Shown: positions 571-63,324 of the stretch, piece by piece
Layout: every line of letters starts with the position of its first letter
How positions within the stretch are numbered: the stretch's first letter is position 1
DNA from: Raja brachyura
Taxonomy: Eukaryota
DNA: 64,000 nt
Direction of reading: 5' to 3'
Assembly (NCBI GenBank): GCA_963514005.1
Contig: OY740800.1
Span: 28,706,001-28,770,000 of the forward strand
The notes under the pieces: generated by a model
Databases searched by the model: none
Seen by the model: the letters and a program-made list of their open reading frames with translations, nothing else
Told to the model about the DNA's origin: nothing
Program-made: the position numbers and the translations under genes

Positions 571-1619
571 GAGATTGTGGGATTATAGCCAAATTCAAAG
601 ACCACCCGTGGGCCCATCACATACCCAACACCCCCATCCGCGCTGTGACTTCCATGGCACCATCTTCAAAGATGTAAAGCACAAGGATGCTCTCCCCCTC
701 ACGTTGCATCGATCTGTTTTTAACTTTCTGTCACCAGCTCAGACACAGGTGACTATCTTTCAAAGATCTCTCCTTTGTGATAATAACTGGCTCGTGATGG
801 CTTTAAAACCTGGCATCTTGGAACCCTAAAGAGATAAGTTGCAGTATTTACATATTTCAAGCATATCTCGAGATTACAATATTTTGGCTCCTATGCTTAT
901 TGTGTCTGTGTCTGTGAATCCAGCCAATCCTATTCCCAAGCCTTTTCCCCATTCTCTCCAGTCCCTGCCTGGTGTGTTACATGAGCCTGTCTGTCTTGAG
1001 CATTCCCGTAGGATTGAGGATAGCTTGACCCCATGGGTTATATACGTTCTGATGTGCCCAATATGCCAGTGTGGGACCTGGGGGCAGAGGTCCCTGACAC
1101 AGTGCGGGTGGATAGATTGCGGTTTGAAGGGCTGCTTCTGCCATTTATGCTTGGCTTATTTGTCGCTTTGAACGGGTGTATTTGAGATTCACAATTCTAG
1201 CGCAAAGTCCATAGTCCACTGTTGTGCAATGATCCCTGCATCTAGGATAGGTGCTTCAATTCTCATGTTGGAGGCAGTCATCGCCTGGCAATGTTGTGGT
1301 GCCGATGTTTCCACCAATCCGTCCGTGCATGGATGTTATCTGGATCTTCATGGGCTGTTTCATTAGCTGAGGATCTGTGAAATGTACAATCATCATTGGC
1401 CATCCCCACTTCTAAGCTGTGGGGACCTATTCGTTAGGACCACGGCTTGCGTGATAACATGAAGTGGATACGAGAAGGAGATATTTGATTTGTGGGCAGT
1501 CAAATTGGTGGATTGAGCCAGTGCTAGGATTCGGGGACCAGAATCGCAGTGTGTAAACAACAGCAAGGGATAACTTTCTGTACTTACCGCAGCCAGACTT
1601 GCTTCACACGTTCACACGT

Positions 1620-2335
1620 GATGAATTGGGCCATTTGGCCCATCAAGTCTACTCCACCATTCAATCATGGCTGATCTATCGTTCCATCTTATCCCTATTC
1701 TCCTGCCTTCTCCCCTTAAGCCCTGACACCTGTACTAATCAAGAATCTATCTATCTCTGCCTTAAAAATATCCATTGACTTGGCCTCCACAACCTTCTAA
1801 TTCCACAGATTAACCACCTTCTGGGCATCCCATTCCAGGAAGGATGTTGAGGTTTCGGAAATGGTGCAGAGAAGTTTTGCCAGAACCATGCCTCGATTAG
1901 AGGGTGGTAGTTACAGGCAGAGGTTGGACAGACTTGGTTAGTTTTCTCTGGAATTACAGAGGTTGTGAGGGGACTTGATCGAGGTATATACAACGATGAG
2001 AGGCAAGGATAGGGTAGAGAGGCAGAATCGTTTTCCAAGCATGGAAAAATCAAATACTTTGGGGCACAGCTTTAGGGTGAGAGGGACCAGGTTTTTTTGC
2101 AGGCAGGTGTTTTGCATGGAGGGTGGCAAGTGCCTGGAACATGTTGCTGGAGGTGGTGGTGCGTAAGTTGATGGCATTTTTGAAAACTTCTGGATAGGCA
2201 TATAGATATACAGAGGATAGAATGATATGGGTTATGTGCTGGTAGATAAATGGTGGTCTTCGCATCATGTTCATCACAAACATTGTGAGCTAAAGGGCCT
2301 GTTCTAAAGATGTACTGTTCCATGTCCTATGTTCT
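1620..2335. mobile_element. Two CR1 3' fragments in opposite orientation (- 1620-1810, + 1820-2335)
   Basis: Contains RGDLIEVY, DRVE and GHSFRVRG-like motifs and CR1-type 3'UTRs. Confidence 0.75.
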
Positions 2336-3069
2336 GCTCAAGCTCTAATCACAGACCTGTTTCCATACTGCTCTTCCTAGTTTGATTTGCTGTGCCTTTC
2401 TGCAGATGAAGTTCTTTTCTGACTCCTACATTACCCTTTAAATTGCAAATCTTATTCACTCCAACTCTGTGTTCACTGTACTGGGCCTAGGGACGAGTTT
2501 TTTTTTCCTTTTGCCATTTCTTAGTTTCACCCATGTCAATTCTACATCCTGATTTTCCGAGCCAACTCCCTTTCTCCCTGGAATACTGGAATTTGTGGAA
2601 TCCACTTTTCATGAACAATCTCGTTGATGTGGACACCAATCTCTTGATAATAGGCTGGGTACTTTGTACTGAAATAACAGCGCCATTCTTTAAGATTTGA
2701 TTTACTTTGCATTTAATGATTATAGTCACAATTAGAACCATAGAGTTTTTGCATAATGGTATTTCCCTCCTACTCACGGGTCATTGGGGAATTAAAACAA
2801 TAACAAACAAGGCAGTGATTATTTTGAGAAAATAACTTTAGTTGATGGATTTGGACGGCATTTAGTTCGTGCAGATAGACCACAGGGACCAACGCACCAA
2901 TTTATTTAAACTGGGGCAGTGCAGATAACAACTTTTTAAGACAATGTTGAGGATGATTACTGTGAGAATCACTTAGTGCAGAAGTGAGAGAGAGTAAAGA
3001 GTCGTAAAGGTGATGGTATTTGGCAGGAACGTAATGACGAATGAGGGATATCCTTTTTAAAATGGAGAG

Positions 3070-3385
3070 GAGAGACTGCAAATGATTGGGACCAGAAAAG
3101 TGCTGAAGGAACTCAACGGGTCAGAGAGCATCTGTGAAGGGAAAGGGGGGTTACACAAAAAGCTGGAGAAACTCAGCGGGTGCAGCAGCATCTAAGGAGC
3201 GAAGGAGATAGGCGACGTTTCGGGTCGAGACCCTTCTTCAGACTTTAACAATGTGAAGGGAAAGGGATGGTCAACATTTTGGGTTGAGACTCCAATTTCC
3301 AGACCTGATGCAGGATCTCAACCCAAAACGTCAACCATCCCTTTGCCTCCATATATGCTGCTTGACCTGCTGAGTTCCTTCAGAC
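3070..3385. mobile_element. Old PLE pLTR fold-back containing a younger hammerhead-bearing pLTR insert (3148-3251)
   Basis: Inverted arms. The inner insert is flanked by TGTGAAGGGAAAGGG at 3133-3147 and 3252-3266. Confidence 0.75.
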
Positions 3386-3499
3386 GTGCTTAATCCTCTT
3401 GTCAACATAGCTTCCTGACTGCTGATTGTTGATGCAGATAGTCTATAGATTTCAACAGCCGGTCACTCTATGGCAAATGGGATAAGAAGGATATAATGG

Positions 3500-3710
3500 A
3501 ATTTGAATCTGTCCGGGGAGAGGGGGGACATGGACAAACCCACCCGGGAAGATGGGAGAGATGGGCAAATCTGTCTGGGGAGAGGGGGCAAATGGACAAA
3601 TCCACCCAAGAAGATGGGGCTGATGGACAAATCCACTCAGGAAGAGGGAAGAGATGGGCAAATCCACATAGGGAGAGGGGGTTATGGACAGATCTGCACT
3701 GCTGTAGGGG
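3500..3710 (+). repeat. Minisatellite, about 7 diverged copies of a ~31-bp unit
   Basis: An ATGG(A/G)CAAAT/C...GAGGGG unit recurs every ~30-31 nt. Confidence 0.8.
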
Positions 3711-4088
3711 AAAGAGATCTACCAGGCATTTCTAAGTATGGTGGGAAGCTCAAACTGTTGGGTGTTCCGGCCGTCTGGAATCACCTCTGTTGGTTGTTCG
3801 GGACTTTCTGAGCCGGCTCCCCTTCCCATTTCTTTTATCTTCTCCTCCCCCTACCCCACCCCCCCTCCCTTCCATTTCCCAGCTCGTGTCCTCATTACCT
3901 ACTTCCCCCAAAGAGATGCCAGTGTGTGTGCGCCTGCCTGCTCACTTAGTGATTGATGTTTGGAGCACCACCAGAGAGCAGTGTTCAGTTTGAGTCCACC
4001 ACACCCGCAGCAGAAAGATGGAACTCAACTACCTTGTTGGAATCTGGCAGGACCCAGCTGCAGGTATCACCTCTGTGTGGACCTGGCA

Positions 4089-4550
4089 GGGTGACAATGA
4101 TACAGCTGGTAGAGCCGCTGCCTCACAGCACTAGTGACCTGCTTCAATTCTGACCTTGGCTGCTGTCTGTGTGGAGTTTGCATGTTGTCCCTGTGATCCC
4201 AAATATTTGCGTGCCGGTGGGTTAAATGACCGCTGTAAATTGCCTCTCGCTGGTAGGGGAGAGGTAGAATCCGGGGGAGTTGGAAGGAATCAGGGGAAAG
4301 TAAGACAGACACTAAAAGCTGGAGTAACTCAGCGGGACAGGCAACATCACTGGAGAGAGGGAATTCCTTCTTTACTCCAGCTTTTTGTGTCTATCTTCAG
4401 TTTAAACCAGCATCTGCAGTTCCTTCTTACACAAGGAAAAGTAAAGTGGGTTGGGGTAGGATTAGTGCAAAGTTGTGGCTGATGGTGAATGGGGACTTGG
4501 TGGTTTGAAAAGACTGTTTCCGTGTTGTTTCTCCATGACTCTGACTCTAT
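4089..4550 (+). mobile_element. HE1-type V-SINE interrupted by a PLE pLTR fold-back (~4304-4432)
   Basis: tRNA-derived head, V-domain GCTGTCTGTGTGGAGTTTGCATGTT and CR1-like tail. The inner hairpin is flanked by imperfect (A/G)GAAAGTAA-like direct repeats. Confidence 0.75.
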
Positions 4551-5179
4551 CAGTTTAGTTGTGTGTGGGTGTGGGTGAGGGGGGGGGGGGGGGGGGGGTG
4601 GAGACAGACAGGCAGAGAGTTGATGGTGGGGACAGGGTGCATTGCCAAAATGATATAAATTCTCTGCAGAGCCCAGGCCAAAGTTTTATTTCTGAGCAAA
4701 CCTCTCAACTGATTCCACTCAACACCAGACTTTCTCCTGTTCTGGGATCAGTTAACACAGCACAAATACTCGACTCTGGGAAAGATCCCAAGTTTTTTTT
4801 TTGCATGAAAAAAAAGTGTTTTTCTGAACATGTGGAAAATATTAAATAAGATGCCTATTTAGTAACAGTACTGTGGAGATCCAGAGGGTAAAACGTTGAA
4901 TTTGACAGAACAGTAACGGTGTGTAACAATCAGGTCGGTGAGTACCTGAAATAGCTGCAGGTTAATATTTTGTATTTAAGCTGTTTATCAGTCAGAAGTC
5001 TGCTGTGCACTTCCTGCATGTTTGCGAGATATTTCTGAAGACCACTGTTGTGAAAATAATTCACAGGGATCCTGCGTTGGGAAGATTGAATTTCACTGTG
5101 ATCCGTGGTCTTTGAAGAAACCCCAGGTCCTGCCCAGGAAAGGTTTACGGCTCACATCGAGGCAGATGGTACCCGCGGT

Positions 5180-5770
5180 GTTCAATGGGGAAGCTTTAGA
5201 CTGTGGGAAGATGCAACTGGGGAGTTGCAGCAAGGAAATATACAATAAATGGGAGGATACTGAGAGGAATAGAGGGAGTGCAAGTCCACAGATCCCTGAA
5301 TGTAACAAGACAGATGATTAAAAAGACATGCAGGATGCTCTATTTATTATCTGCAGCAAGTTAACATGAGAGTAAGTGGTTTGTGTTTGAACTGTTCAGC
5401 CTTGTCTAAAGTCCTGCATACACTTCTGATCACCACATCATGGATAAGATCTGATTGCATTGGAGAGGGTGCAGAGGAGACTTGTGAGAAAGTTGCCAGG
5501 ACTGGAAAACTGTAGCTGTGGGGGAAAGGTTAGATCGAGAGCAGTTGTTTTATTAGGAGCACAAAACGGTTGTCGGAGATTTAATTGGGGTGTATAAAAT
5601 TGAGGGATTTTGATCGAATAAATGGCAAGCTTCTATTTCCCTTAACAAGAGGAGTCAAACACCTGACCACAGAGACTTAAAATAATTGGGAGAGAGATTC
5701 ATTGAGAAGATGGTAGATTCAGTAGTTGGTACGGGCACAAACCTTCCCTGCATTGAAAGTGCCCAGGTAT
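5180..5770 (+). mobile_element. Highly decayed CR1 fragment
   Basis: Contains TTGGAGAGGGTGCAGAGGAGA (LERVQRR) and a GDLIGVYKI-like segment. Confidence 0.65.
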
Positions 5771-6589
5771 GGTTGTGAGGAATGTGTAGGAAAGAACTGC
5801 AGAGGCTGGTTTAAATCGAAGATAGATGCTGCCTGTCCTGCTGAGTTACTCCAGCATTTTGTTCAGCAGAGTTAAGGATAGAACTCTGAAAGGTGGGTTT
5901 AGGTGGGGTAGCTTAGTTTGTTCAACCAGCACAGTCATAACAGGCCAAAATGGTTCGGACATCCTTTATTCTTGTTTGGTATCTGGATATCCCCCACATT
6001 TATTGCTCATCCTAGATCCCTCATGCAAAATATTTGATAACTTTTCCTGCGGCCTTGTCAGTTACCAAAGTTGGACTTGATTCAACTTTGAGTTTGGCTC
6101 AACAAGGAGCGACACAATGATCCAGAACCAAAATGAACATCAAATACCTCCCAACAACAAAATAAATGCTACAAACAGGTCGGGCAACATATGTAGAGGG
6201 AGAAATGTGGAGAGTGCATTTGAAGTCAAACTGCAAAATGAGTTTGAAATCAAATGTGTATTAAGTTGCAGGGAAACAGAGGAGTGAAGAAAACGGAGAG
6301 TGTGCGATGCGGTGGAGTCTAAGAGATGAAATGACACATGGTGGTGCTGGCTGTGAGCTTATTAATATCAGTTAATCTGTCAGGAGAAGGTGTGAATGAA
6401 GATAGATAAGAGTGACAAAACATTGGTCATTTATAATGGAATGACTGGAAGTCTTTTTTTTAAAATGGGATGCTTGAAATAACCAACAGGTCAGGCGGCA
6501 ATGTAGAGAGAGAAGAATTTTACATTACAGTATCATGGCCTTTCCTTAGAACTGAGCCATCTGATAAAATGAGGAAAGGCTGATTACAT

Positions 6590-6780
6590 GAAGTTGTTCA
6601 GTCAAGCTTCCTGACCTGCTGGAAAATGTATTGGGTCAGAGATTAGGTCCTGTTCTTTGAGCTTGTGTTGGGTTTCTGTTGAAACCGTGTCGGAGGCCAA
6701 AGAGGGAGAGCAAAGTAGAGGTGGGAAGGTAGAATTAAAGAGACAGGAAACCAGACATTCAGGGTTACCCTGCAAACTGA
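6590..6780 (-). mobile_element. Decayed Penelope GIY-YIG C-terminal fragment
   Basis: NPECLVSCLFNS...TETQHKLKEQDLI resembles the PLE consensus LPVAxHFNS...EAxRKLEEQHLIF. Confidence 0.55.
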
Positions 6781-6809
6781 TCATGCAGTTACACCAGGGT
6801 AAAGGAGAC

Positions 6810-7101
6810 CACTTTGGCGCAAGTGGAAGAAAGCTACCTTGCCGTGCCAGAGACCCAGGTTCAATCCTGACCTCTGGTGTTGTCTGTGTGGAGTTTGTAT
6901 ATTCTCCCTGTGACCAAATGGATTAATTTCTTTCCACATTCTAAAGTAGGTTAATTGGCCTCTGTAAATTACCCCAAATATGTAGGGAGTGGATGTGTAA
7001 GTGGGATAACGTGGAACTAGTAGAAATGGGTGATCGGTGTTAGATGTGGATTCAGTGTGCCAGAGGGCCTGCTTTACATGCTGTATCTCCAAAACTAAAA
7101 C
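6810..7101 (+). mobile_element. HE1-type V-SINE
   Basis: B box GGTTCAATCC, V-domain, and CTGTATCTC...ACTAAAAC tail. Confidence 0.8.
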
Positions 7102-7114
7102 TTCATCACAATAA

Positions 7115-7240
7115 AAGCACAGTAGATGTTGGTTTACAAAAAAAACCACACAAAGTGCTGGAGTAATTCAGCAGGTTAAGCAACATCTCTGGAGAATGTT
7201 GGTAGGTGACGTTTCGAGTTGGAACCCTTCGTCAGAGTAC
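7115..7240 (-). mobile_element. PLE pLTR fragment with an intact hammerhead core (7208-7235)
   Basis: Minus strand reads CTGACGA-A-GGGT-TCCA-ACTC-GAAAC-GTC. Confidence 0.7.
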
Positions 7241-7929
7241 TGAATGTTGAGAAACTTTTCTTGAGAAACTATTCTGTGCATCTGTTTTTAATAAAGTAAG
7301 ATGCTATCAACTGTTTTGTTGACCCGCTGAGTTACTCCAGCTCGTTTATTTCACTGTGCTTTAAGCCATCTTCAGCGAACCGTTCCGATTGACAAACTTT
7401 CACCACTGACTCTTCACCATCTGTGCCTTTGTCACCACCTGATCTCATACACAACCTCTTGTCTCTTTCATGCTCTCCCCTTAATTTCTGCTGTTTAAAA
7501 CACATTTCATTTGTAACTGCTCAGTATTTCTAACACTGTTTTTTGTTTTGGATTTCTAGTTTTCTACTCCATTGAAAACATCTGATAAAGTTACTGTGCA
7601 TCACTGTTTATCTTTTCATCGAATTTCTCAATCCGATTTAGCCCACCTGCCTTTATCACTTACTTGATGTCCACATCAATGATTTTAGTCCTAAAACAAA
7701 ACTTTCATGATATCTACAATTGAGTGAACTTTAGTAGAAATAATTTAATTTTGTTCTATTTGATTACTAGCAGTGAAGAATCACTGTGGCCCGATTATTT
7801 GATGACTTAATTAAAAAGGCAGGCAAGCCATCTGAAGAAGGGTCTCGATGCGATATGTCACCCATTCCTTCTCTCCAGAGATGCTGCCTTTCCCGCTGAG
7901 TTACTCCAGCATTTTGTGTCTATCTTCGG

Positions 7930-8545
7930 ATTACAGAATAATGAAAGGCACAGATAGAGTGGATGTGGAAAGGCTGTTTCCACTGGTGGGAGAGTCTAGG
8001 ACCAGAGGTCATAACCTCAGAATTAAAAGGCCCTCTTTTAGAAAGGAGGTGAGGACTATAACGTCTTTAGTCAGAGGGTAAATCTTTAGTTAATCTGTGG
8101 AACTCATTGCCGCAGAGGGCTGTGGAAGCCAAGTCAGTGGATATTTTTAAGGCAGTGGTAGACAAATTCTTGATTAGAACGGGTGTCAAGAGTTATGGGG
8201 ATAGGACAGGAAAATGGGATTAGGAAGCAGAGATCTGCCATGATTCAAGTCAAGTTTATTCGTCACATACACATACGGGACGTGCAGTGAAATGAAAAGT
8301 GGCAGTGCCTGCGGACTTTGTGCAAAAAACAAACAACCAACCAACAAACTACAAACAGAATCACATGTTCTTTGTCATATTAAATATTGTGGGCGGTATT
8401 GTGGTACAGTAAGTTAGTAGAGTTAGTCCCTGGTGAGATAGGAGTTTACGGGCCGAATGGCCTCTGGGAAGAAACTCCTTCTCATTGAATGGCAAAGAAG
8501 ACTTGATGGGCCGAATGGCCTAATTCTACTCCGATAACTTGTGAA
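7930..8545 (+). mobile_element. CR1 3' fragment with a nested minus-strand Rex1/Babar-like 3' fragment (8246-8483)
   Basis: Encodes IMKGTDRVDVERLFPLVGESRTRGHNLRIK. The CR1 3'UTR CATGATT|GAATGG is split by the insert, with ATT on both sides. Confidence 0.75.
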
Positions 8546-9914
8546 ACCAGCATCTGAAGTTCCTTCCTACACACGCAGGAAAACCTGTTGGGTCCAAAAC
8601 CTTTTAGGTCAGTTGATAATGACTGTACCCTTTGGTACACTTAAACGTACTTGGCCCTGAGTATGAAACTCTGAGAAGCTACGTGATGCATCTGCTTTTA
8701 ATAAAGATGAAGGTAAGGTGATTAATGACTGTTTTGTTGATAATATTAAAGCAGAGGTGAAAAGGCCACTACGTTGCACCAATAAGAAAACAGTCAACAT
8801 AACCAGTAACAGTAGGTTCAACCAGTGATGTTGGTGACACTACCAGGCACGTAAGAAAGCTACGTTACTACTTCCCCTGTGTTGAAGTTAATGGCCGGTC
8901 CTTTTAAAGGCAGCTGTAACTGCAAGAGGGTGGTAGCTAAAGGCAACATTGTAGGTGGAACAGGAGCTGATGCTAAACACTCACAGCTGCCACATGTCTA
9001 CTGCCTCCACAGTTCTCCACTTTTAAAGAGAGCACTAGGATAGCACAATAACCCCCGATCACAATTTTGCCACTGGTCGTTACAAAATAGAATTGCGGCA
9101 TGAAAACCTGCAAGATTAAATGTGATGTGTCGTAGTGTTGACCTATTTGTGGTGTGAGATGCTCTGGTCTAAGGAAGAGCAGCGTAGCAGCTTGTAACTA
9201 GCACCTCCCTTTGGAGGCAAGAAATAATTGGTTGCATTTGTCAATTAAATGTCTATGCGCCGTGCTCATACCAGACAGAAAGTTCTTGAGAATCAAACAG
9301 ATCAAATTACTTTGTGGGATGTTGAAGCCAAGCTTGTGTGGAGTTGATGTTTGTGCTGAGCTGTTGGAGCTGCGCTGTGGAGCAGAAGATGATCTAAACT
9401 GAGGTGGCATCGAGCCACACAAGAGTAAATTTGTCTTGGGCCATGGACAATGCAAGAACAGTTCTCCACCTACTTATGCATGACAACTCCCGGATTAAAT
9501 TACTGCTTGTTATTCCAATTATGTACAATTGGTTCTCAGTCACGGATTAAAGCAGCAGGTATTTTCTGAATACAATTGTTTTGCCTTGTATTGGAAATTG
9601 ACTGTTCCCGCAATTAACGAGGATCCTTGCAACATTCCATCACACAGCAGGCTCCTCTGATACTTAAACCTGCACCCCTGTTTTTGTCCAGCAAGCACCT
9701 ACTTTAAACCCATCACCTTCCCTCGTTTACCAATGCCTATCACTCCTATTTGACAAGTTCACTTTAGTTTGGTTAATATTTTAGAACAACATTCTGTGCA
9801 TAACCACTCACATCCGATATCTCTTGGGGTGTGGTGATGATCATTTTGTGACATGCCCTTTCTCTATTTACCTTGTAATCCTAAAAACCCAGGTCAATAT
9901 TTAATTAGCTCCGT

Positions 9915-10330: not shown

Positions 10331-10601
10331 AAGTAAATGCAGGATAATTCTCCAGGATAGACTATAAGTGGCCGATAGTTGCATTTAGGTTGCCAAACTT
10401 AATTGGCAGGACAATTGCCTAATCACCTCTACGCCCCGCTGGTTTGAATGTGTGTGTCCTTGTGTCAGTGCCAGTGTGAGTGCCATGCAGTACTAAAATG
10501 AGCTTGCACACTAGCATGCTCCGCTCACTAGTGGGTCAGCTGCCACCATGAGAGGCTGCCCGAGGCCACGAGGAAGATAAACCTAAAGCCTCTTTTTCTA
10601 A

Positions 10602-10822
10602 GAAAGACACAAAACCTGGAGTAACTCAGCGGGTCAGGCCAGACAGCATCTCTGGAGGAACAGAATAGGTGTCGTTTTGGTCTGAGACCCTTCTTGAAGA
10701 AGAAATCTGAAGAAGGATCTCAACCTGAAATGTCACCAATTCCTTGACCTGACCCGCTGAGTTACTCCAGCCTTTTGTGTCTATCTTCGCTTTAAACCAG
10801 CATCTGCAGTTCTTTCCTGCAC
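10602..10822. mobile_element. PLE pLTR fold-back element with a 14-bp TSD
   Basis: Inverted arms GACACAAAA..CTGGAGTAACTCAGCGGGTCAGG and CCTGACCCGCTGAGTTACTCCAG..TTTTGTGTC. GCCTCTTTTTCTAA at 10588-10601 and 10823-10836. Hammerhead-like core at 10707-10734. Confidence 0.8.
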
Positions 10823-12059
10823 GCCTCTTTTTCTAAACCAGCATCTGCAGTTCCTTGTATCTAAGTTAAAAGTCACTTGTGTGCTGTTACCTGTGGGAAG
10901 AATTTTAAATACATGGTTTAAAAATAGCATCTTTTCCTGATTTTGAGCAACTCTGTGAGTTGTTTGGTTACATTTCTGGTAAATCTTTCCAAGAGTATCA
11001 AATGTATTCAATAAAGAATTCTATCCATGTAGCATGTAACTGGCACTTCAGAACATTGCCGCTGACAAACTACTTTCAAAGCATAAGCATTGTTTTACCG
11101 ACAAGCGCTGCGCCTTGTTTGGAAACTGCCAGGTTACAGGTGAACAATTGGATCTTTTAGATCAGCAGGAATGTAGGTGTCACTACCCTGTTACTTGATT
11201 AGATGTTTTGATTGAGGAGGAATAAAAGATCTCAGATGCCAGAAAGCTAAAATATAAACATTGTGAGAAATACTGAACAGTTACAAATGAAACGGGTTTG
11301 AAACCACAGAAAGTAAGGGAAGGGCGTCAGGAAGGCGAGGCCAAGTGCGAGATTGGGTGGAGACAAGGTGGGGTTGAAAGGTAGCCGATGAATGTTGAAT
11401 GTCAGCACCTTAAACATTCTCTCCCTCTCTCTCCACCACCATCACACGATCTGTACCGAATGTCATCTGCAAACAGCTCTACCATGGCAGCATCCCCCCC
11501 CCACACCCCGGCATAGACAGACACCGCCACCCACAGATTCCCTCCAGCTCAAACGCTATCCTATCACGGTGAAAATGGAGGACTGTTCTACACCAGAAAT
11601 GCTGCATAATCCAGCACTGTCTCCAGGCCAGTTTGGGATGGGCAACATGCGCTGGCCTTGCCATCAGCGCTCATGCCATCATGTAAATGAGTTTAAAAGA
11701 AAGAAGAAGACCCATAACATGGCCTACCCAGTTCATCCACAGATGCTGCCTGACCTACTGAGTTATTCCAGCACTTTGTGTTTTGTTTAAAAGAAAGAAC
11801 AGTGGAATGTCCTTAAAGTGAAATTTGCCCTCTGACCCATTTCAAATTGTAGGAGTAAGTGCTGAGTGACTCTCAGAAGCTCAGTGCAGCCACCGTGAAG
11901 GCTCGGGGGAGGTCCACGATCTAGGAGGGGCAGAGTCCAATAGGCACACCCCTCAAACAAGGGAATGGATACAACTTCAGGGAGCCACACAGGTGACAAT
12001 GGTGTGTGTATAGAGAAGTGCGAAACCCACAGGGCTAACACTTGCTAACACTACTGTGG

Positions 12060-12480: not shown

Positions 12481-12920
12481 ACGAACACTAGCAACATTGC
12501 CTGCATAAACATACTGTGTTTTATATTTATATTTTTATATTAGGAATTAATTTTATTTTGAAGTAAAACAAAAGTCTTCCATACCCCACAGTCATCCCGT
12601 AGCATCACTCACCGTTCCCATGCATTGTCGTAACCATTCCCTGACAGCAAGTTACATGGAATGCAGAGCTGAGTCATTGACAGCAGAATGGCCTCGGGTG
12701 CATTTGCGACCCATAGTCAAATAGAATGATACAACACTGCAGCACAGGATAAGCTTTATGGCACCCGGAAAAGCTGTGTGCTTAAAGTTAACTGGAGAGT
12801 GGATTGCTTTTCCTTGACATTCCTGGATTATGCTGTCATTCCGTCACATGATGATGGGGACAAGAAGCCATTGACATATGCAGCTTTCCTGCTCTCCGGG
12901 TAGTCAATTGATGAACAGAG

Positions 12921-17900: not shown

Positions 17901-19252
17901 GTGTAAGAGAATAGGTGAGGGAGTGGAAATGTATGGATTATTCTTGAGATGGGATAAGTGGCCTCCTCCAATCTGTTGACCAGCATTGACATGTGGAAAT
18001 TATGTGAACCAGTTATTATGTGAACCTGGATCAACCTATCACTTGGCAATGCTGGCCTACCCCTCCCCCCCCCCCCCCCCCCACCCACCCCATCTCTTTC
18101 TACCAGCTTTCCACCCTCTACTCCACCAGTCTAAAGAAGGGTCCCTACCCAAAAAGTCATCTGGTCATTTCCCTTCAGAGATGCTGCCTTGCCTGCCGAG
18201 TTCCTCCAGCAGTTTGTTTTTTGGTCTAATTTTAAAGTCTGCATGGTTCGCTCATGCAGGCAAAATGAGCAAAGACAATAAAAAATAATGCAATCAAACG
18301 TGCCATCGATGGAACCTTTGCTCTGTAAATGCAGTCTTCGATATGATCCTTGTGCAGGCAATACCAACGTTCTTCTTGGCCAAATTCTTGCATTGAATCG
18401 GTTCCAAGTGACTCGCATGTACGGGGCTCAGGGTAATTTGTGAAACGCTCAGATGTTTGATTAGATGGCCATAGGAGCTGAAGGTAGACAGTGACCAAAC
18501 CTTAAGCAGGTGTGTAGTTACAATTAAGAATTTAGCTGATGGTCCAAAGATGAAAGTTGTGATTTACTTTAATGCCACAATCTGTTGTTGTGCACCTGAT
18601 AATTCATTCTCAGATCCTTCAGAATCAGAGGTCTGGTATTTACCCAGCGAGGAAAAGGAGACCAGGGTTTACTCTCTGATCTGCGTTCCATTGACACCTT
18701 TGACGAGGAAAGCATTGCCTGAACACAGAAAAAGGAAAAATCAGACAGGGATTCTATTCCCATTTGCAGTTCAGTTGAGAAATTACATTAATGGTTAGGG
18801 GTGATGTCTAGTGCAGCCCAATAACCTTTCAACACTAATTGGACCCTCGCTTAAAGAAAAACCATTGAGATAGCTGCTGAAGCTGTTGACCCACATTAAC
18901 CTATAACAGGAAAGAGACAATATCGACGGGAGAGGAAAATAAGAAGAATGAAAAATAAATTTAAAACAGTCTGTTTAACAGAAATGCAAGTCTACCAGCA
19001 CCCAACAGTAACAAAGATCGGTCCAAGGTAAAGAAAGAGGAGACACTTTTACATTGGCGTTTGTTTGATTTGTGTCTTGGGACTTTGCCTGGAAACTGAT
19101 GTAAATTCCATTCATCTGTGATCCAAGCAAAATAAGCTCTAGTGTATGGAGATGTAGTTCACGGCGTCTTGAGCAGTTAGCCTTGGTTAAAGAGTAGCAT
19201 ATTCTCCCTCAGTTAGCAGGTATAGGTCTAAAGGAACCTATGAAAGAAGGTG

Positions 19253-19474
19253 TTTAAGAAGGAAATGCAGATGCTGGAAAATCGAAGGTAGGCAAATATG
19301 CTGGAGAAACTCAGCAGGTGAGGCAGCATCTATGGAGCGAAAGAAATAGGCGATGTTTCGGGTCGAGACCCTTCTTCAGACCTTCTTCGGTCTGAAGAAG
19401 GGTCTCGACCCAAAACATTTCCTTCGCTCCATACATGCTGCCTCACCCGGTGAGTTCCTCCAGCATTTTTGTCT
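19253..19474. mobile_element. PLE pLTR fold-back element with a 17-bp flanking direct repeat
   Basis: About 100-bp inverted arms centred at ~19385, with back-to-back hammerhead motifs. ACCTATGAAAGAAGGTG at 19236-19252 and 19475-19491. Confidence 0.85.
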
Positions 19475-21049
19475 ACCTATGAAAGAAGGTGATGGCTGGA
19501 GACCCGCAGCAGTCTGGGACTTGCCTGGAACAGGCACCACTCATAAGATCTAGCGTGGACTTGGCGCCAAAACATGGCGCCTCTTGCATGCGGGTTCAGT
19601 AGACTATTTCTGTACACTTGCTGATCGGGGATGTGGCAATACTCTATCGGACTGTTTGTAAGAAAAGGAATTACACTGTGTGTGTTAGCACTTCATACAT
19701 GTGACAATCAAAGCACCGTTGACCATTAAAGTCTTGTGAAGAATCAAATGTGAGGTGCAGCAGCGACAGAGGCGCTGCCCTTCAGACAAAGTGTTGAACC
19801 ACGATCAGGTCTGTTCTCTCGCATGAACACACAATGCTATTGAAGGACGGGGGCAGATGCAATATTCATCACTCAATCAACATCATGAATAAATAGATTG
19901 TAAATGCAGCTCAAAAAGCTTTTTGAAGCGTTTGTGTAAATGTCCACCTGTGATAATTGCTGTATGAATATATTCCTGTAACATCTTTGTTCAAAAAGGA
20001 AAACAAATAAATGATGCATCATCAGAGGACTGTTTAACCGGTCACCCACTGGTTAAAAACAGCTAGCTGCAAAACACCATTAACATGACAGCCTAACATG
20101 CTTTGTGATTCAATGAATTGGCTGCCAAGTGTGTTACTATCTGGAATTAGTTAAAATGTAAGCACAATATAGTTCCAAAGTGAGCATCTGTATTGTTTAG
20201 AGACATGTTTGGTGGTAAGGTTTGCCGTAAACCTTTTTAATTACAGCCCAAATAAGACGCTTATGATGTTCAGGTCTCCTGCTGAACATGGTTAATTAAG
20301 TGAAAAAGCCTTCACGTTGAGGTGACACAAAATGTTTGGCCAGTGTTGACAAGGAAATAAGAATGGATCAGATACAGCAGAAAATAACCGGGATTTGGAG
20401 AAAGCAGAAATTCACAGGTGAGAACGAGATTGTCAGAGGTATTAGTGGTAGTTACAGAATATACATACCAAACTCATGTGGTTGATGAAGGAGTTGGCTT
20501 CTTGTTAGGAGGAGAAGTGGTGTTACCATGGTGTAGGAGGTAACATAAAATGACTTATCTTTGTAGCCCCGGTGCCCACACCTTATTGAGTCCAGAGCCT
20601 GCCATGATGTCAAGTTCTTCCTCCCACCTCCATGCTATTTTTTGTTTAGTGAAGTGCCTCCCACTAATAGCCCTTTCTTCCATCTCCAACACTCAGCTTC
20701 CACTTGGACATCCATAGCCAGCCTTTTCCCCTCTCTCAACAATTTCACTTCCAGCAGCTGTCATAATATCGACCATCAGTCTGAAAAAGTGTCCCGACCC
20801 AAAACATTGTCTGTCCATTTCCTTCCGCTGATGGGGTGCTTATATCTCCATTATATCGGACATTGCTGAGACCATGTTTGGAATACCATGCACGGTATTG
20901 ATCACTTTAACTAAGAAACCGTACGAATGCACGAGAAGCAACTCGGAGAAGGTTTACTAGAGCAGGTGGACAAGCTTGACGTATTGACTGAAGTTTAGAA
21001 GAGTGAAAGGGGGACTTGATTGACAGTGAGTGTAAGCTTACCCTCTTGA

Positions 21050-24889: not shown

Positions 24890-25670
24890 GCATACAACCT
24901 AACGGTATGAACATTAAATAATACAACCTAATGATATGAACATTGAATTCTCCAATTTTAGGTAACCTAACTATAAACACCTTTTCCCATTTTATTTACG
25001 TATTTGTTTGTTTTTATGTTTCTCCCCTTCTCCGTCTCTTCCCCGTGCTCCACCTGGAATTGGAACCATTTCACCCCTTCCCCAACTCTGGGTTGGTGGG
25101 TCTCTGGAACTCTCTGCCACAGAGGGTAGTTGAGGCCAGTTCATTGGCTATGTTTAAGAGGGAGTTAGATGTGGCCCTTGTGGCTAAAGGGATCAGGGGG
25201 TATGGAGAGAAGGCAGGTACGGGATACTGAGTTGGATGATCAGCCATGATCATATTGAATGGTGGTGCAGGCTCGAAGGGCTGAATGGCCTACTCCTGCA
25301 CCTATTTTCTATGTTCTATGTTTCTAACTCGTTTCCAACTGTATTTTCTTCTCTGACTTCACAAATTACACCTCTTCTATCCTTATTTCACACCTTTTGT
25401 CTTTTTATCTCTGGCCTGTGTTCAACCTATCAAAAACCTGTATCCACCTATCACTCACCCAGCTTTGTCCTCCAGCTTTCTCCTCCCCCTTCACCAACCA
25501 CAATCAGTCTGACCTGAAACATTGCCTATCCATGTCCACAAAAAAAATGCTGCCTGGCTTGCTGAGTTACTCCAGAACTTTGACTTTTTGTCTTTTCAAT
25601 GTGAAACATAAACTATTCCTTTCCACCTATAGATGCTGCTCGACTCACTGAGTTCCTCCAGCAGATTATT
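24890..25670 (+). mobile_element. Penelope 3' end (ORF terminus plus pLTR), interrupted by a CR1 3' fragment at 25090-25325
   Basis: CAACCTAATGATATGAACATTGAATTCTCCAATTTTAGGTAA translates as QPNDMNIEFSNFR*, the typical vertebrate PLE ORF end. A pyrimidine-rich UTR follows, then a collapsed hammerhead (CAGTCTGA..GAAAC, ~25505) and ATGCTGCCTGGCTTGCTGAGTTACTCCAG. Confidence 0.75.
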
Positions 25671-26637
25671 TGTAAAACATGGTAAATGGTTGTTTTCTGT
25701 CTTCAAGTCAATTTCTTAACCTGCCACTGACCTGCTGCATGGTCCCACCATTTTCTGATTTTATATTAGATTCCCAGCATCTACAAGTTTATTGATTTTC
25801 TCCCCATCCCGTCATTGTTTTGTAACCTCCCAAAATGCGACAACACTCCTGCAGCAGAAATATTGGTCTCTTCTGAGGTCTGGCCTATCTGGCCTGTGGA
25901 GTTCCTTCCTCACCAAAAACAGTTCCCGTTCCACATGCATGAAGCCTCCCCATTGAATCATCTCTCCAGCTTTGGTTGGCTAGTACTGATATGGACCAAG
26001 ACCTCTAACTGCTCGCCCTCAAAGAAAATAGGAGCAGGAATAGCCCATTTAGCTCCTCAAGACTGCCCCACCCTGTAGCATGATCAACTCATCCTTTGTA
26101 CCACATCCCTAAGTACTCAATCTCCCACCCTTTTGAAAATTAAAAATTTCTAATGACAGGAGCAGGAGTAGACCACCTGGTCCTTCAAGCTTGCCCCACC
26201 ATTCAATACGATCACACTTTAAAGATTTACTACCTTCTGCGAGAAGGAATTTCTACCAGAGAACCACTTATACGTTACTTTGGGAATTGCCAAGTAGAAA
26301 AAAAAGTTGTCTACTGGGGAAAAAAATAGTCAAGGAAAAAAAGTTTCCATATAACCTCTGCAGTAATTAGGCAATATTTCCTCTTAAGAACACAGTCTAT
26401 CAGTTTCACCGCTGGTGGTCATTGAAAATTTACAAGCATTCGCTTCTAGTGACACAATGCAACATACAGACCTAAGTATTTATAGCAGTAACAAAAATAA
26501 TCCTATCATTATTGAAAAATCGGTATTTTTGATAGTCCTACAAGAGGTTTTTTTTTTTAAATTGTGTGTCTAAATCTCCCCCCCCCCCCCCCCCCCCAAA
26601 CTGTGCCCCCTCCCTTATTTGACACATTTGTTTTACA

Positions 26638-26850
26638 GCTTGTGGCCTCACTTTGACAGTGGAGGCCCAGGACAGAAAGGTAAGTGTGGGAATGGGAAGG
26701 GGAGGTAAAATGTTTGCCAACCGGGAGATCGTGTAGGCCAAGGCAGACTGCGCATAAGTGTTCAACTAAACGATTGCCCAGTATGCGCTTGGTCTTGCCG
26801 CTATACGGGAGACCACGCCGAGAACAACGGATGCAGTGGACGGGCCACAC
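26638..26850 (-). mobile_element. Penelope-like GIY-YIG endonuclease fragment
   Basis: Encodes VHCIRCSRRGLPYSGKTKRILGNRLVEH...DLPVGKHFTSPSHSHTYLSVLGLHCQSEAT, matching the PLE pattern VYCIxC..C.L.YIGETKR.L..RF.EH...PVA.HF. Confidence 0.85.
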
Positions 26851-27230: not shown

Positions 27231-27324
27231 ATCTGAAGGAGGGTCTCGACCCAAAACGTCACCCTTTCCTTCTCTCCAGAGATGATGCCTGTCCCACTGA
27301 GTTACTCCAGCATTTTGTGTCTAC
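27231..27324 (+). mobile_element. Short PLE pLTR insert beginning at the hammerhead core
   Basis: TCTGAAGGAGGGTCTCGACCCAAAACGTC...TTTTGTGTCTAC, flanked by CAAGAATT(C/T)AA at 27220-27230 and 27325-27335. Confidence 0.7.
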
Positions 27325-27732: not shown

Positions 27733-27866
27733 AGTATGTAGGAAGGAACTGCAGATGCTGGTTTAAACTGAAGATAAACACAAAAAAGCTGGTGTAACTC
27801 AGCGGGTTAGACAGAATCTCTGGAGAAAAGGAATAGGTAACGGTTTGGGTTGAGACCCTTCTTCAG
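27733..27866 (-). mobile_element. PLE pLTR insert
   Basis: Full arm plus tail, ending at CTTCTTCAG. Flanked by ACATCAGA at 27725-27732 and 27867-27874. Confidence 0.7.
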
Positions 27867-27909
27867 ACATCAGATGCATCCCAAAATCATTGTCCCAGTG
27901 TACAAATTT

Positions 27910-28207: not shown

Positions 28208-29109
28208 TACTAGTTTTAGACCCAAACATTCTTCACTTACAAGTCATCTTCTTCCACAGACGTGAGTAAGGCAACACGGCATCCAATAAATCAATTAGAA
28301 GCAAGTTCAAACCCTGCGTGAGGAAGTTCTCCTCACCCAACTATGAATAATACCTGGAATAATTCCCACATAAACAGCATGAGCAAAATTATTGAATAGT
28401 TATTTGATGTCAGAAATGGTAGGAGGAATTGGAGACTTCAAAGGAGGAATGTTCGAATTTTCATTTTTGTAATCAGACAGGAAAAAAGTGGTTTTAGACT
28501 TTCATTCAAATAATTAATTCTAACATCCATTTAATCTTTGCTCGTTTCCCACATTTTCCTCGCAGAACAGTTCCCATTTAATTATTTATATTATTTTTAT
28601 AAAATAAACTGAGAAAAATAAACGACCTGAAAGACATCCACTGATGTGTGTGTTTGGAATGTGTGAAAAACGTTACTCCAGTGGCACTAAAATGATGTTA
28701 AATCTTGTGTTAATCACAACAGATTTTTAATGAATTGATCCATTAATTTGATTTATTTTTCCTACAAAATGAGTTTTGTAATGAGTACAATTTTCCATGT
28801 TCCGATGCTAATGCTTGAGCCCCATTCCAAGGCCAATGAGAGCTAATGATTATGAATGCATTACTTTATTAAAGGCTGGCAGGACTAGGGGGCACAGAGG
28901 TAGACGTTTGGAGCAGTAAACTGCAAATGGAGAAAAAATAGAAAATACTGGAAACAATTAGGAGGTCAGGCAGTATATGTGGAGGGAGAAACCGAGTTCA
29001 TATTTCAGATCAGAGACCCGTCTTCAGAATTGTGAGCTCCTCTTCAGATTCTTCCCGATCTGCTGAGTGTTTCCAGCATTTTCTGTTTTAATTTCAGATT
29101 TCTAGCATC

Positions 29110-31090
29110 AATAGTTTATTTGATTCTCAATTACTTAAAATTGAAGGTTGTGCAGAGGAATGGAGCAAGGGTAACGACCTGTTGGACCGGGGAATTATGA
29201 CAAAGTGCATTTGGATTATGGAAAGATGGAAATGCAACGGGGTTATCCTAGTGAGAGACAAAGTGCTGGAGTAAATCAGCCGGTCCAAGGCATCTGTGGA
29301 CAAAATGGATAGGTTACGTTTCCAGTTAGGTCTGTCGAAGGGTCCCAACCCAAAATGTCACCTATCCATTTTCTCCAGAGTTGCTGCCAGACCCACTGAG
29401 TTAATTCAGCACTTTGCATCTATCTTTGGTATAAACCAGTATCTGTAGTTCCTTATTATTACATTAGGGTTATCTTAGTGGGTGAATTTAACTTTCCCAA
29501 TACTAACCAGAACTTGCTCAGTGCCAAAGCTTACATGCGGCAGAATTTGTGAGGTGTATCCAAGAGACTTTTGTGAAACAGTATGTGACTAGTCCAACCC
29601 GAGAAGGGAACTTGCTGGACCTAGTGGTCAGAAATGAGCCTGGTCAAGTGACTGGTGTTTCAGTGGAAGAGTATTTTGGGGATAGTGATCACCACTCTAT
29701 AACTTTAAGGTTGCTTTCAATAGGGAGAAGGCTGGACCTTGTGGGGAGGTGATAAATGACATTAAGGCAAACTACAATGTTATCAGGAAGAAGCCGAGGG
29801 GGGAAAGCTGGGAGCAATTGTTATTGGCTGTCCAAATCTGATATGTGGGAGTTGCTTGAAGGGCAAATGGTCGATGTTTAGAGCCAACATGTTCCAGTAA
29901 GGAGGAGGGATAAGGATGGCAAAGGAAGGAAGCACTGATTGACCAAAGAGATCATAAATTTGGTCAAAAACAAAAAGGAAGTGCATGCAAGGTTTAAGAG
30001 GATGGAATCAGATAGGGCCTTAAAGGAATATAAAGAAAGAAGGAAAGAACACAAGCAAGTGACTAGATGGGCCAATAGGGGCCATAAAATGGCTTTGACG
30101 AATGGCTTTAAAGAAAATTCAAATATTTGTGTACTTGTATTAAATACAAGAGGATAACCAGGGAGAAGGTAGGACTGCTCCAGGATAAAGGAGGGAATTT
30201 GTGCCTGGAATCTCGGGAGAAGGTAGGAGAATGGGGTTAAGAGGGAATACTACGGAAAAGGACATGAAGAACAGTGAGATCAGCATAGAGAATACTAACA
30301 TGCGAAGGAGGTTTGAGATTAAGGAGGTGGTGTTGGGGCTCGTGTAGTACATGATAGTGGTTAAATGTGGTCCAACTCCATAATTCCCTGAAAGTGGGAA
30401 TGCAAGTAGATAGAGTGGTAAAGAAGGCATATGGTATGCTTGCTTTCATAGGTAGGGACATTGAGTATAAGAGTCAGGAAGTCGTGATGCAGCTATCTAG
30501 GACTTTGGTAAGTCTGCATTTGGAGTAGTTAGTGCAGTTCTGGTCGCCTCATTACAGGAAGGATGTGGAAACTTTGAAAAGGATGCAGATGAGGTTTACC
30601 AGGATGATGCCTGGATTATGGGGTAATAGCTGCAGGGAGCAGTAAGACAGACTTGGATTGTTTTCTCTGGAACGCCAGATATTGTGGGGAGACCTGATAG
30701 AAGTATATAAAATTATGAGAGACAGCTCATGTCTCATATGAGAATCTTTCTCCCAGGAAAATCAAATACGAGAGTGCAGAGCTTTAAGGTGAGGAGGGGG
30801 AAGTTTAAAGAATGTCCAGGATTGGCAACACTGCCTCAGCCCCCTAGGTCCGCACTGCACTCTGGATTCATTCCTGATCTCACCACCCTTCATCGTCTTT
30901 TTCCTTTCTTCATCAGTCTCATGGTCATCTAGAGTTGTCAAAGAATACATCAGGATATAGATCAGCTACAGAAATGGGCGGGGAAATGGCAGATGGAATT
31001 TAGTCTGAGGAAGTGTGAGGTGTTGCAGTTTGGGAGGTGAAATCTAAGAGGAAAATATACATATAATGGCATGATTCTTAAAAGCATTGA
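29110..31090 (+). mobile_element. Fragmented CR1 ORF2 (APE endonuclease to RT C-terminus) with a pLTR fold-back inserted at 29254-29466
   Basis: QYVTSPTREGNLLDLV...GDSDHHSI (APE SDH motif) followed by later CR1 motifs. The insert is flanked by GGGTTATC(C/T)TAGTG at 29240-29253 and 29467-29480. Confidence 0.85.
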
Positions 31091-36754: not shown

Positions 36755-37153
36755 AAAAACAAACAGCTTGGTGATCTCAGCGGGTCAAACAGCAGCATTT
36801 GTGGAGGAAACGGACAGATTACTTTTTAGAGCAGGATTCTTCTTCAACAGGTGCCAACTCAAAATGCCATTTGTCCATTTCTTTCCATGGCTGATGCCTG
36901 ACCCGCTGAGTTCATCCAGTAGTTAGTTTCCTGCTCAAGATTCCATCATCTGCAGCTTCTTCTATCTCTGTGTGGGAAGGAACTGCAGAAGCTGGTTCAC
37001 ACCGAAGATAGACACAAAAAACTGGAGTAACTCAGCGGGTCAGGCAGCATCTCTGGAGAAAAGGAATAGGTGATGTTTCATGTCACCTAAATGTCACCTA
37101 TTCCTTTTCTCCAGAGATGCTGCCTCACTCGCTGAGTTACTCTTCTACCTCTG
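36755..37153. mobile_element. Two adjacent PLE pLTR fold-backs (old ~36755-36960; younger 36971-37140 with its apex deleted)
   Basis: Inverted arms. The younger copy is flanked by TCTTCTA(T/C)CTCTG at 36958-36970 and 37141-37153. Confidence 0.75.
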
Positions 37154-49900: not shown

Positions 49901-50692
49901 GCATCAGAACTGAGATGAGATAGTGGCCAAAATATTAGTTGGCCCTTGAGAGTTTGGTGGAGATGGGTGGCAGTTAACAAGAAATGTCAGCTGAAGCAGA
50001 TGCATTTGAGTTACCCCATTAACATTTGGGATAAAGCTTAATTACTCAAATGACATTACTGGTGCAGTTTCAAGAGTTGAGTGCCTACTTGTCAGATGCA
50101 TTGGATGTAAACTGGAAATATACAATTCTTTGGAGAAAAAATGACTTGCAAATGCTGGTTTACAAAAAAAAAGAGATGTCCTTTCTGGAAAACATGGATA
50201 GGTCACCTCTCCATGTTTTCCAGAGATGCTGCCTAATCCACTGAGTTACTCCAGCACTTTGTGTCTTCCAATGAAATCCTTATCTGCTTTCATCCAAAGA
50301 ACAATGTTTAGTGCTTGTAGTTATCAGCAAACAGTGCATCCACTTGGCTCAGTGAGTAATGATTAAATGCAGCTATCAATGCAGTGCATGAGGCTGCATT
50401 TGTCCATCCCCTGCACCTTCCAAGACAAACCTACCTTCTAACCTATTTGTACCTTTTAATCTAATAAAATGCTAGGATAGTGCTAGGGATCGCTGGTCGG
50501 CGCAGTCTCGGTGGGCCGAAGGGCCTGTTTCCGAGCTGTATCTCTAAACTAAACTAAGTCTGCACAGACTGAAAATTGTTTATGAAGTTGGAGTTATTGA
50601 AAAATCAGTCACCGCCGACCAGCATATTTAAGACTAAACCTAAAACCGTTTATTATATGGCAAAATCAATTCCAGAGGTGAACACCTAGAAA

Positions 50693-50839
50693 GCTTGTTC
50701 ATTCTCTTTATACCCTTCCATATCTCCAGCTTCTCCCATGACTCTCAGTCTGAAAAAGGGTCTTGACCCGAAATGCCACCCATTCCTTCTCTCCAGTGAT
50801 GCTGCCTGACCCTCTGAGTTACTCCAGCATTTTGTGTCT
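50693..50839 (+). mobile_element. PLE pLTR insert with a decayed hammerhead
   Basis: CAGTCTGAAAAAGGGTCTTGACCCGAAATGCC, flanked by ACCTAGAAA at 50684-50692 and 50840-50848. Confidence 0.7.
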
Positions 50840-51644
50840 ACCTAGAAATCACTGCTGGTTTGTGCAGATCTCTTTAACAATGGTGCAGGCCCTTGGTGCA
50901 ATCTCCCGACAATCCACAGCTAACAAGTCGGTCTTGTGCCTAGAAGCTCAATGTATTGGTCGGCATAAACCAATTTTGAACCCTGAAGGCAGATGTTGCT
51001 GTATTATCTTGAAACGTATCCTGGTTTATAAAAAGTAACAAACGCCCATTTTCTATTATGTACCTTTTTATTTTATCTCCTCCTTCCCTTGGGACAGGTG
51101 ACGAGAAATGTTGGGAATCATTTCTTTCACAAATGTTGCAGTGCCAGAGGCTACTGAGATTAAGCTAATTATATTATCCAGCCAGTGCCAAAACTGAGGC
51201 AATGAGAGGTTTTTTTTCTCTCAGAGAAAACCAATGAGAAATTGGAGGGACAGTCTGATTTGATTGAACACCCCATAGGGTGCAAAGCTCTGTAGTTTTC
51301 AGTTAAATGTCACTGACCATGTGGGTTTGAAGACATGTGATCTGTTTGGTGGATCCGTAACTACAGAATAAACAAGCAGTCATCTGGTATCCATTAAAAG
51401 GAATTTTACTGATTAAGTGAAATGAACATGGTCCCAGACATTTTGTGGCCAATCTCAGCCTTGTACATGAGCTAATGTATGGACAGAACAATTGAAAATA
51501 AACCTCAAAACGAGGAGTGAAAAATGCAACTGTTAAAGATAAACAGAATGCAAACACAATTCTCAGAATCTTGTAATTAACCTCTTTGCAACAAAGTCTC
51601 TGTAAAGCATGTTTGCTTAATCAACGAATCTGTTGTAACTCTAA

Positions 51645-62967: not shown

Positions 62968-62992
62968 GTGAGTGCAACTGTATGGAATGGAC

Positions 62993-63291: not shown

Positions 63292-63324
63292 GTAAGCTCA
63301 CGTGACTGTCAGTCCAGAGTCAGT

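Follow-up and report, generated by a model that had tools for sequence, protein, structure and literature searches.

A dispersed minimal hammerhead motif heads an abundant short repeat, likely derived from a Penelope-like element, in Raja brachyura

The window analysed here, a 64-kb stretch of Raja brachyura DNA, ends on its right side within a gene: two exons at 62409-63165 (+) encode the last part of a PET domain together with a LIM domain, an arrangement that we take to be that of Prickle/testin-type genes. The segment 46001-48000 is G+C-rich (0.53) and possibly a promoter island. Pieces of an abundant LINE-like family, some with reverse transcriptase (RT)-like frames, lie at 333-578, 25091-25325, 39401-39718, 21431-22234, 30371-31375 and 40296-40553, and a SINE-like repeat family of 200-380 nt has about 8 copies in the window:

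6815-7099, 23261-23499, 27923-28138, 42175-42419, 52062-52442, 53600-53919, 62993-63298 and 63496-63792: SINE-like family copies

On the minus strand at 3214-3241, the letters read CUGAAGA-A-GGGU-CUCG-ACCC-GAAAC-GUC, exactly as the initial annotation gave them. Positions are numbered here from C3, which places the predicted cut between +27 and +28. The core boxes CUGANGA, GAAA and NUH are present in type-I order, with majority letters intact across the window copies. The window family also has a single base separating positions 9 and 10.1, the G10.1-C11.1 pair, and a palindromic 15.2-16.2 segment (ACGU) without loop 3; helix I is only 2 bp in most copies. In the available text of Cervera and de la Pena 2014 (PMC4209133), the minimal-hammerhead consensus of Penelope-like elements (PLEs) comprises CUGANGAH, a helix II that begins with G and ends with C, GAAAN, a central palindrome and NUH, and the window motif agrees with it position by position (Fig. 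S3 of the supplement). Two features first taken as deviations from the canonical fold both occur within this class: the extra A after CUGANGA corresponds to the base between A9 and G10.1, which like G10.1-C11.1 is a conserved trait of PLE minimal hammerheads, and a helix I of 2-3 bp falls within the published alignment, with 2-bp cases in Drosophila (PMC4209133). The spaced core pattern with at most one mismatch matched 7 times in the window, against 1.57 ± 1.17 expected, and 7 or more matches arose in 0 of 100 shuffles. An Rfam scan of the 64-kb window found no hammerhead family at E ≤ 5. Its miRNA-like scores at 19313-19451 and 37024-37142 were rejected, as these segments are inverted pairs of the hammerhead element.

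The core is dispersed, as initially described, but the motif is not free-standing: it heads an element of 95-135 nt. A first profile, for which 15 copies served as seeds, matched the window 44 times at E ≤ 0.01 and 47 times at E ≤ 1, while five simulated windows gave 0, 0, 0, 0 and 2 matches (best E 0.71). A longer profile (17 seeds) recovered 47 pieces at E ≤ 0.01, 26 on the plus and 21 on the minus strand. The earlier figure of more than 15 copies was thus too low, and every coordinate then listed is a genuine copy; the one at 12941 is real but begins at helix II, the letters before it belonging to its inverted partner. The element occupies 3,930 bases, or 6.1% of the window. Its self-match count is the highest there (25, versus at most 12 for any other repeat), which bears out, within the window, the view that it is among the commonest repeats. 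The copies named below are as follows.

3097..3384, both strands: older inverted pair, identified by profile, its minus arm split by the young copy 3151-3251
3151..3251, minus strand: young short copy consisting of the core, some 63 nt of tail and 10 extra 5' bases, inserted into an older copy
3214..3241, minus strand: intact minimal hammerhead core with CUGAAGA, an inserted A, a 4-bp helix II, GAAA, palindromic ACGU and predicted cleavage after GUC
4301..4433, both strands: inverted pair folding back just downstream of the predicted cut site; 13-bp repeat with 2 mismatches, its score of 7 lying in the null range
7113..7236, minus strand: long-tail copy, identified by profile, with a second intact core at 7208-7235
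10588..10836, both strands: inverted pair with a short and a long arm; 14-bp target-site duplication
18020..18233, plus strand: copy continuing into the upstream UTR, identified by profile, core broken
19236..19491, both strands: inverted pair from one insertion; 17-bp target-site duplication 19236-19252 / 19475-19491
27231..27324, plus strand: short solo copy from the core 5' edge, A9 and G12 changed; 8-bp abutting repeat, its score of 8 equal to the null maximum
27737..27868, minus strand: long-tail solo copy from the core 5' edge, G12 and A15.1 changed; 8-bp abutting repeat
28935..29115, both strands: old inverted pair; no duplication found
29240..29480, both strands: inverted pair; 14-bp duplication with 1 mismatch
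36755..36963, both strands: old inverted pair; no duplication found
36958..37153, both strands: inverted pair whose arms begin inside helix II; 13-bp duplication with 1 mismatch
40831..40927, minus strand: copy with CUGAUGA and GUU and a broken 10.1-11.1 pair, from the core check
42088..42162, minus strand: young copy truncated inside helix II; 13-bp duplication
50684..50848, plus strand: copy that includes some 57 nt of upstream UTR and has a broken core; 9-bp duplication

Direct repeats scoring 9 or more (9-17 bp) flank 10 of 34 unit definitions, versus 0 of 294 mismatched flank pairs (maximum 8); the 34 include some units defined twice and some boundaries drawn by eye, and 24 of them have no duplication above the null. 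Four of the ten duplications frame a whole inverted pair, indicating that such pairs are single events. Seventeen neighbour pairs lie within 30 nt of each other (9 diverging, 3 converging and 5 tandem), 12 of them on opposite strands, and by profile seven of the nine diverging pairs combine one long with one short arm. The 3' ends of 45 pieces are bimodal: 22 fall at +84..+102 and 19 at +118..+131, with none between. The second cluster is capped by the length of the profile, but contig loose ends at 27737 agree with it. The two ends are about 35 nt apart, matching the optional 30-40 bp PLE tail described in the available text of PMC11167929 and PMC8557442. Frangieh et al. 2024 (PMC11167929) attributed this tail to RT starting at two internal sites, with cleavage and extension of both target strands.

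Individual insertions illustrate these patterns. Both arms of the 19236-19491 pair reach the core 5' edge, the minus arm with a long tail (+130) and the plus arm with a short end (+97). The young copy at 3151-3251 is flanked by a 15-bp target-site duplication (3133-3147 / 3252-3266) and is 98% identical to 42088-42162 over the tail, and the solo copy at 27737-27868 has contig loose ends at both 27737 and 27868. The plus arm at 29332 of the 29240-29480 pair could form a 5-bp helix I, with A6 and G12 changed. Three side observations concern the same structures. Nesting at 3097-3384 and clustering or nesting at 12909-13224 and 36755-37142 hint at self-targeting. At 50150-50273, fold-back arms meet at the predicted cut site, as a ribozyme-cleaved template would give, in a single case with no duplication found. 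The centres of two inverted pairs (19380-19391 and 10696-10706) hold a short re-copied piece of the core purine run, which suggests slippage at the cDNA junction.

The many copies that form long inverted repeats could also reflect a foldback DNA element of MITE-like type, in which the hammerhead look would be a chance feature. Against this, the arms are variably truncated at the centre, their outer ends are unequal, the duplications vary from 9 to 17 bp and are shared by solo copies, and the core is tied to PLE ORFs elsewhere (see below). We consider this reading largely refuted and its chances very slim.

The 5' ends were tabulated for 42 arms, leaving out the window-edge copy, one split piece and three tail-only bits. 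Eight start downstream of the predicted cut site and 17 inside the core, counting one that is a long copy carrying a deletion; the other 17 start at C3 or beyond it, one of these owing its extension to its inverted partner. In old copies generally, the alignment ends are eroded. Thus 34 of the 42 arms extend upstream of the predicted cut site, so that most templates were continuous across it, either uncleaved or cleaved and re-ligated. The stop rate per base is 0.022 in the core versus 0.0036 in the tail (p 9e-6). Beyond the core, the UTR letter is kept among 18 arms at C3 by 15 at -1, 11 at -2, 10 at -3, 8 at -4 and 6 at -5. Contig ends upstream of the 27737-27868 copy agree at only 0.34, and most genomic copies therefore also seem to stop near there. 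Judged by these alignments, copying tends to end at the hammerhead 5' edge. The pile-up is not general: among the matches listed for the largest metagenome family, the upstream match extends 4-79 nt (28 contexts), and among those listed for another family 6 of 11 stop within 3 nt.

In copies with upstream UTR, a pyrimidine tract has CAG at its end, one base ahead of the core (25505-25510, 18125-18130, 50744-50749 and 20775-20780). We take this sequence to resemble both a splice acceptor and the initiator consensus, and TCAGT upstream of the hammerhead 5' edge presumably resembles the latter. Our preferred reading of the 5'-end pile-up is an RNA start at the hammerhead 5' edge. Alternatively, a structural stop at that edge might explain it, as might a splice acceptor placed there such that splicing completes helix I. 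The splice explanation would account for the acceptor-like tract and CAG and for GGT before the core in three arms, which gives a helix I of 4-5 bp, and in the available text of PMC4209133 a D. virilis intron ends at helix I. However, the three GGT arms come from only two insertions, one of them due to fold-back microhomology, and no shared upstream exon was seen.

An RNA start at the hammerhead 5' edge raises the possibility, which we hold to be somewhat doubtful, that the short copies are complete copies of the element's 5' leader rather than 5'-truncated 3' ends. In that case, RT would mostly prime on the 5'-proximal copy of the internal tail sites and reach the end of the RNA after 95-135 nt; the resulting strong-stop-like product would integrate directly, and inverted pairs would arise where both nicked strands are primed. 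If true, one PLE family would seed cores at SINE-like density without a SINE master, and the copies would be genomic evidence for an uncleaved template.

Only two of 17 full-core copies keep all core bases and all pairs, namely 3214-3241 and 7208-7235, both on the minus strand; extrapolated from the window, this is about 30 intact cores per Mb. Among the copies initially described as near-intact, that description holds for 7208-7235, which has one G-U pair in helix II. The other three each have a broken pair: pair 10.1-11.1 in 40899-40926, the ACGU palindrome in 19352-19379, and an A.C mismatch within helix II in 10707-10734. G12, the general base, is part of a CpG, and 19 of 35 copies retain it; retention is 18 of 32 for the non-catalytic loop G and 28 of 38 for the G of a tail CpG. 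In inserted copies the general base is thus lost at the pace of neutral CpG sites. In ACGU, the C is kept in 21 of 34 copies and the G in 23 of 34, the remaining losses being mostly CpG decay. We considered selection against intact copies on the sense strand (0 of 10 plus versus 2 of 7 minus copies intact) and set it aside because the numbers are too small. Nearly all copies in the window show decay or truncation; they are likely products of target-primed reverse transcription that are now inert.

An excess of conservation in the core over flanking repeat sequence, which the initial annotation had made a test of the ribozyme reading, was found outside CpG sites. Non-CpG core bases are kept at 236 of 255 cells (92.5%), versus 1075 of 1236 (87.0%) in the best-kept tail stretch (p 0.011), in a comparison that counts related copies as independent and in which alignment ends are biased toward conserved bases; the whole tail keeps 1827 of 2216 non-CpG cells (82.4%). 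This suggests, with modest support, constraint on the parent elements.

The same core occurs in other animals. An exact scan with 22 constrained core bases, in a pattern taken from the window that left the helix I positions and the fourth helix II pair free, found at least 121 metagenome loci and 0 matches in viral contigs. Among the matches listed, the flanks do not resemble the window element outside the core; the core itself differs by hardly a letter between distant animals with unrelated flanks. In 77 distinct contexts among the matches listed, helix I pairs 1 and 2 show Watson-Crick pairing at rates of 92% and 90%, compared with shuffle means of 63% and 42% and maxima of 81% and 58%. The third pair forms in 52% versus 35% when shuffled (maximum 49%), and further pairs are at chance. 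By these comparisons, helix I covaries across other animals. For helix II, whose covariation had been proposed as a check, the fourth pair forms in 64 of 119 metagenome contexts among the matches listed, and the other three are fixed by the search pattern. A 24-row alignment of 5 window copies and 19 metagenome loci, the latter hand-picked for diversity among the matches listed, has 88.7% paired cells versus 67.1% when shuffled.

Within the at least 121 metagenome loci, a PLE protein match accompanies the core in 25 among the matches listed (L001 and L002 among these 25 being one contig). In 21 of the 25, the core is preceded on its own strand by the ORF, at a distance of 55-576 nt, and in 4 the ORF is inverted. 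L002 holds, at 1005-3663, a near-complete Neptune-type PLE from another animal, with an RT, a GIY-YIG domain and a 3' hammerhead with the same core. The core follows the ORF by 133 nt, an inverted 130-nt copy lies at the 5' end, and the CX2-5CXXC linker is present; L002 is thus usable as a reference element.

Remnants of such an element are also present in the window, where no PLE RT was found in the 64 kb.

24895..24965, plus strand: probable C-terminal end and stop codon of a PLE ORF, with a 29-bp internal duplication; tblastn E 0.05 to PLE protein P0024
24966..25508, plus strand: probable PLE 3' UTR of about 310 nt, pyrimidine-rich, split at about 25091-25325 by another repeat family
25509..25590, plus strand: copy downstream of the probable PLE UTR, identified by profile match, with most of the hammerhead core deleted
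26629..26841, minus strand: degenerate GIY-YIG endonuclease remnant of a PLE, a separate insertion; 79 matches at E ≤ 0.001, best 2e-14

The relatives of the nuclease remnant came from a full HMMER protein search; a word-indexed protein search with the remnant gave no match, and a Pfam scan of 26629-26841 itself gave no GIY-YIG match. Several relatives carry both RT and GIY-YIG domains by Pfam, and of the nine looked up, the five with source names come from stingray, little skate and whale shark, which by itself makes a cartilaginous-fish host probable. The CX2-5CXXC linker, which marks Neptune and Nematis in the available text of Craig et al. 2021 (PMC8557442), is present in 21 of the 31 relatives long enough to test, the window remnant itself starting after the linker region. 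From these relatives of the nuclease alone, the clade is probably of Neptune type, or less likely Nematis.

At 24895-24965, 14 residues match the C terminus of a PLE protein, with the stop at the equivalent place, and a C-terminal profile has its only matches in the window at this ORF end (E 0.13 and 0.3). The last 67 nt of the UTR match 18023-18088 (E 6e-4), and the end of the UTR recurs before the 18020-18233 and 50684-50848 copies. No target-site duplication framing the unit of ORF end, UTR and 25509-25590 copy was found. Contigs aligned to 24780-27900 (run X3) cover the sequence just before the ORF end about 7-fold, as single-copy DNA, then sum to 40,029 over the ORF end, to 3,849 and 8,103 over the UTR, and to about 4 million over the element; these summed depths are no copy numbers and serve only to separate repeat from single-copy DNA. 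The stretch is repeated DNA in all three organisms compared by contigs. The order of ORF end, UTR and copy is as expected for a PLE and plausibly reflects one, the join alone being statistically weak (14 residues, E 0.05-0.3).

The excess of short copies over ORF pieces, both in the window and in contig cover, would also suit a separate non-autonomous element of SINE-like or retrozyme-like type that has an RNA or circle of its own and is mobilised in trans by the PLE protein. The sharp concentration of 5' ends and the existence of young, near-identical short copies point the same way, and a 2026 preprint counts retrozymes in one chondrichthyan species (bioRxiv 10.64898/2026.07.22.740005, available text). 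However, at least 3 copies run on into a shared upstream UTR, and neither a tandem array of the 95-135 nt unit nor a tRNA gene, as would head a tRNA-derived SINE, was found in the element or the 64-kb window. Several subfamilies of the element, moreover, share the same ends, and a property of the parent RNA is a simpler explanation of this than a number of separate masters. We therefore regard an independent unit as unlikely.

Predicted folds bear on whether the core could act as a ribozyme. In its 102-nt context, the 3214-3241 core forms helix II with a probability of 0.01, being sequestered by a downstream pyrimidine stretch; in the 7208-7235 copy helix II forms, but the CUGA box is paired. 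A hammerhead dimer of a 36-nt piece has a predicted energy of -6.7 kcal/mol, versus -19.7 kcal/mol for the best cofold. These models ignore tertiary contacts, and the folds agree with the weak or protein-dependent activity reported for PLE minimal hammerheads in the available text of PMC4209133 and PMC11167929. We predict that the ribozyme is functional only in the parent element RNA, as a dimer through ACGU or with the element protein. The dimer model put forward at the outset would apply to the parent RNA but not to the genomic copies, which are mostly decayed or truncated and whose neighbours are mostly on opposite strands; the few head-to-tail neighbours in the window have broken cores. 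Some same-orientation joints of the element occur in assembled contigs of the organism, and tandem arrays may thus exist outside the window.

It is conceivable that the hammerhead is vestigial here, kept for another job such as promoter, splice acceptor or protein binding, or simply hitchhiking, without cleavage. The continuity of most templates across the predicted cut site would fit this, as would the 2-bp helix I and the folds that sequester the core. For the anole element, moreover, insertion in vitro did not require cleavage, and no reads ended at the cut site (PMC11167929, available text). On the other hand, the anole ribozyme cleaves when protein is added (PMC11167929), the core is near letter-identical in distant animals with unrelated flanks, where helix I covaries, and non-CpG core bases are better kept than the tail. 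On balance, we judge a vestigial hammerhead to be quite improbable.

We conclude that the window family is in all likelihood a minimal type-I hammerhead heading a 95-135 nt repeat, likely the pseudo-LTR end of a Neptune-type PLE, with the window copies likely inert. The original reading of a minimal type-I hammerhead on a highly abundant, PLE-derived repeat is thus supported by sequence, copy structure and the association with PLE ORFs. On the copying process, we infer a plausible series of steps. First, the element RT-endonuclease would nick both target strands about 9-17 bp apart. Reverse transcription would then prime at two internal RNA sites, about 95 and 130 nt downstream of C3, and RT would copy back through the uncleaved (or re-ligated) hammerhead, usually stopping inside the core or at its 5' edge. 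Priming on one strand would leave a solo copy, and priming on both an inverted pair whose arms differ in length, one long and one short. Decay would follow insertion, beginning at G12 because of its CpG. The 5'-end pile-up and the pairs of long and short arms make the PLE copying mechanism testable from the genome alone, and junctions from thousands of insertions could be used to ask what role the PLE hammerhead plays and at which points RT begins and ends in vivo.

Hammerheads in PLE pseudo-LTRs have been known since 2014 from fish, coelacanth, frog and reptiles, and no cartilaginous fish was found among the hosts in the available text (PMC4209133); nor did a literature search, with subscription papers and repeat libraries outside it, find a report of PLE minimal hammerheads from cartilaginous fish. 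The window family shares with the published class CUGANGA followed by one base, G10.1-C11.1, GAAA, a palindromic 15.2-16.2 segment, no loop 3 and NUH, as well as a short helix I and an occurrence mostly as dispersed single truncated copies with some opposite-strand pairs (PMC4209133, available text). Its helix II of 4 bp and its helix I, mostly of 2 bp, lie at the short end of the range given there, and its density (2 intact cores per 64 kb) would, if the window is typical, far exceed the 4,000-9,000 per genome of that study.

The Poseidon element of the green anole, PAc, offers a further comparison (PMC11167929, available text). In both, the hammerhead lies about 100-130 nt upstream of two 3' ends, and in PAc both target strands can be cut and extended, with uncleaved RNA as template. 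In contrast to PAc, the nuclease relatives here carry a linker of Neptune/Nematis type, the usual core is CUGAAGA and lacks the AUG with which the PAc ORF begins, and the family is known from sequence alone. Non-LTR retrozymes are likewise non-coding, PLE-derived and equipped with a type-I hammerhead, but consist of tandem units each with a hammerhead, whereas copies here are solo or inverted (bioRxiv 10.64898/2026.07.22.740005, available text). Like Neptune EN+ PLEs in the available text of PMC8557442, the family has, in its relatives, a C-terminal GIY-YIG with the CX2-5CXXC linker and a hammerhead near the 3' end, and its copies show 5' truncation, an adjacent inverted copy and a tail at one end only; unlike Neptune elements, they are reduced to the last 95-135 nt. 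The hammerhead class itself is already known, and what is new here is the scale and the record of the mechanism.
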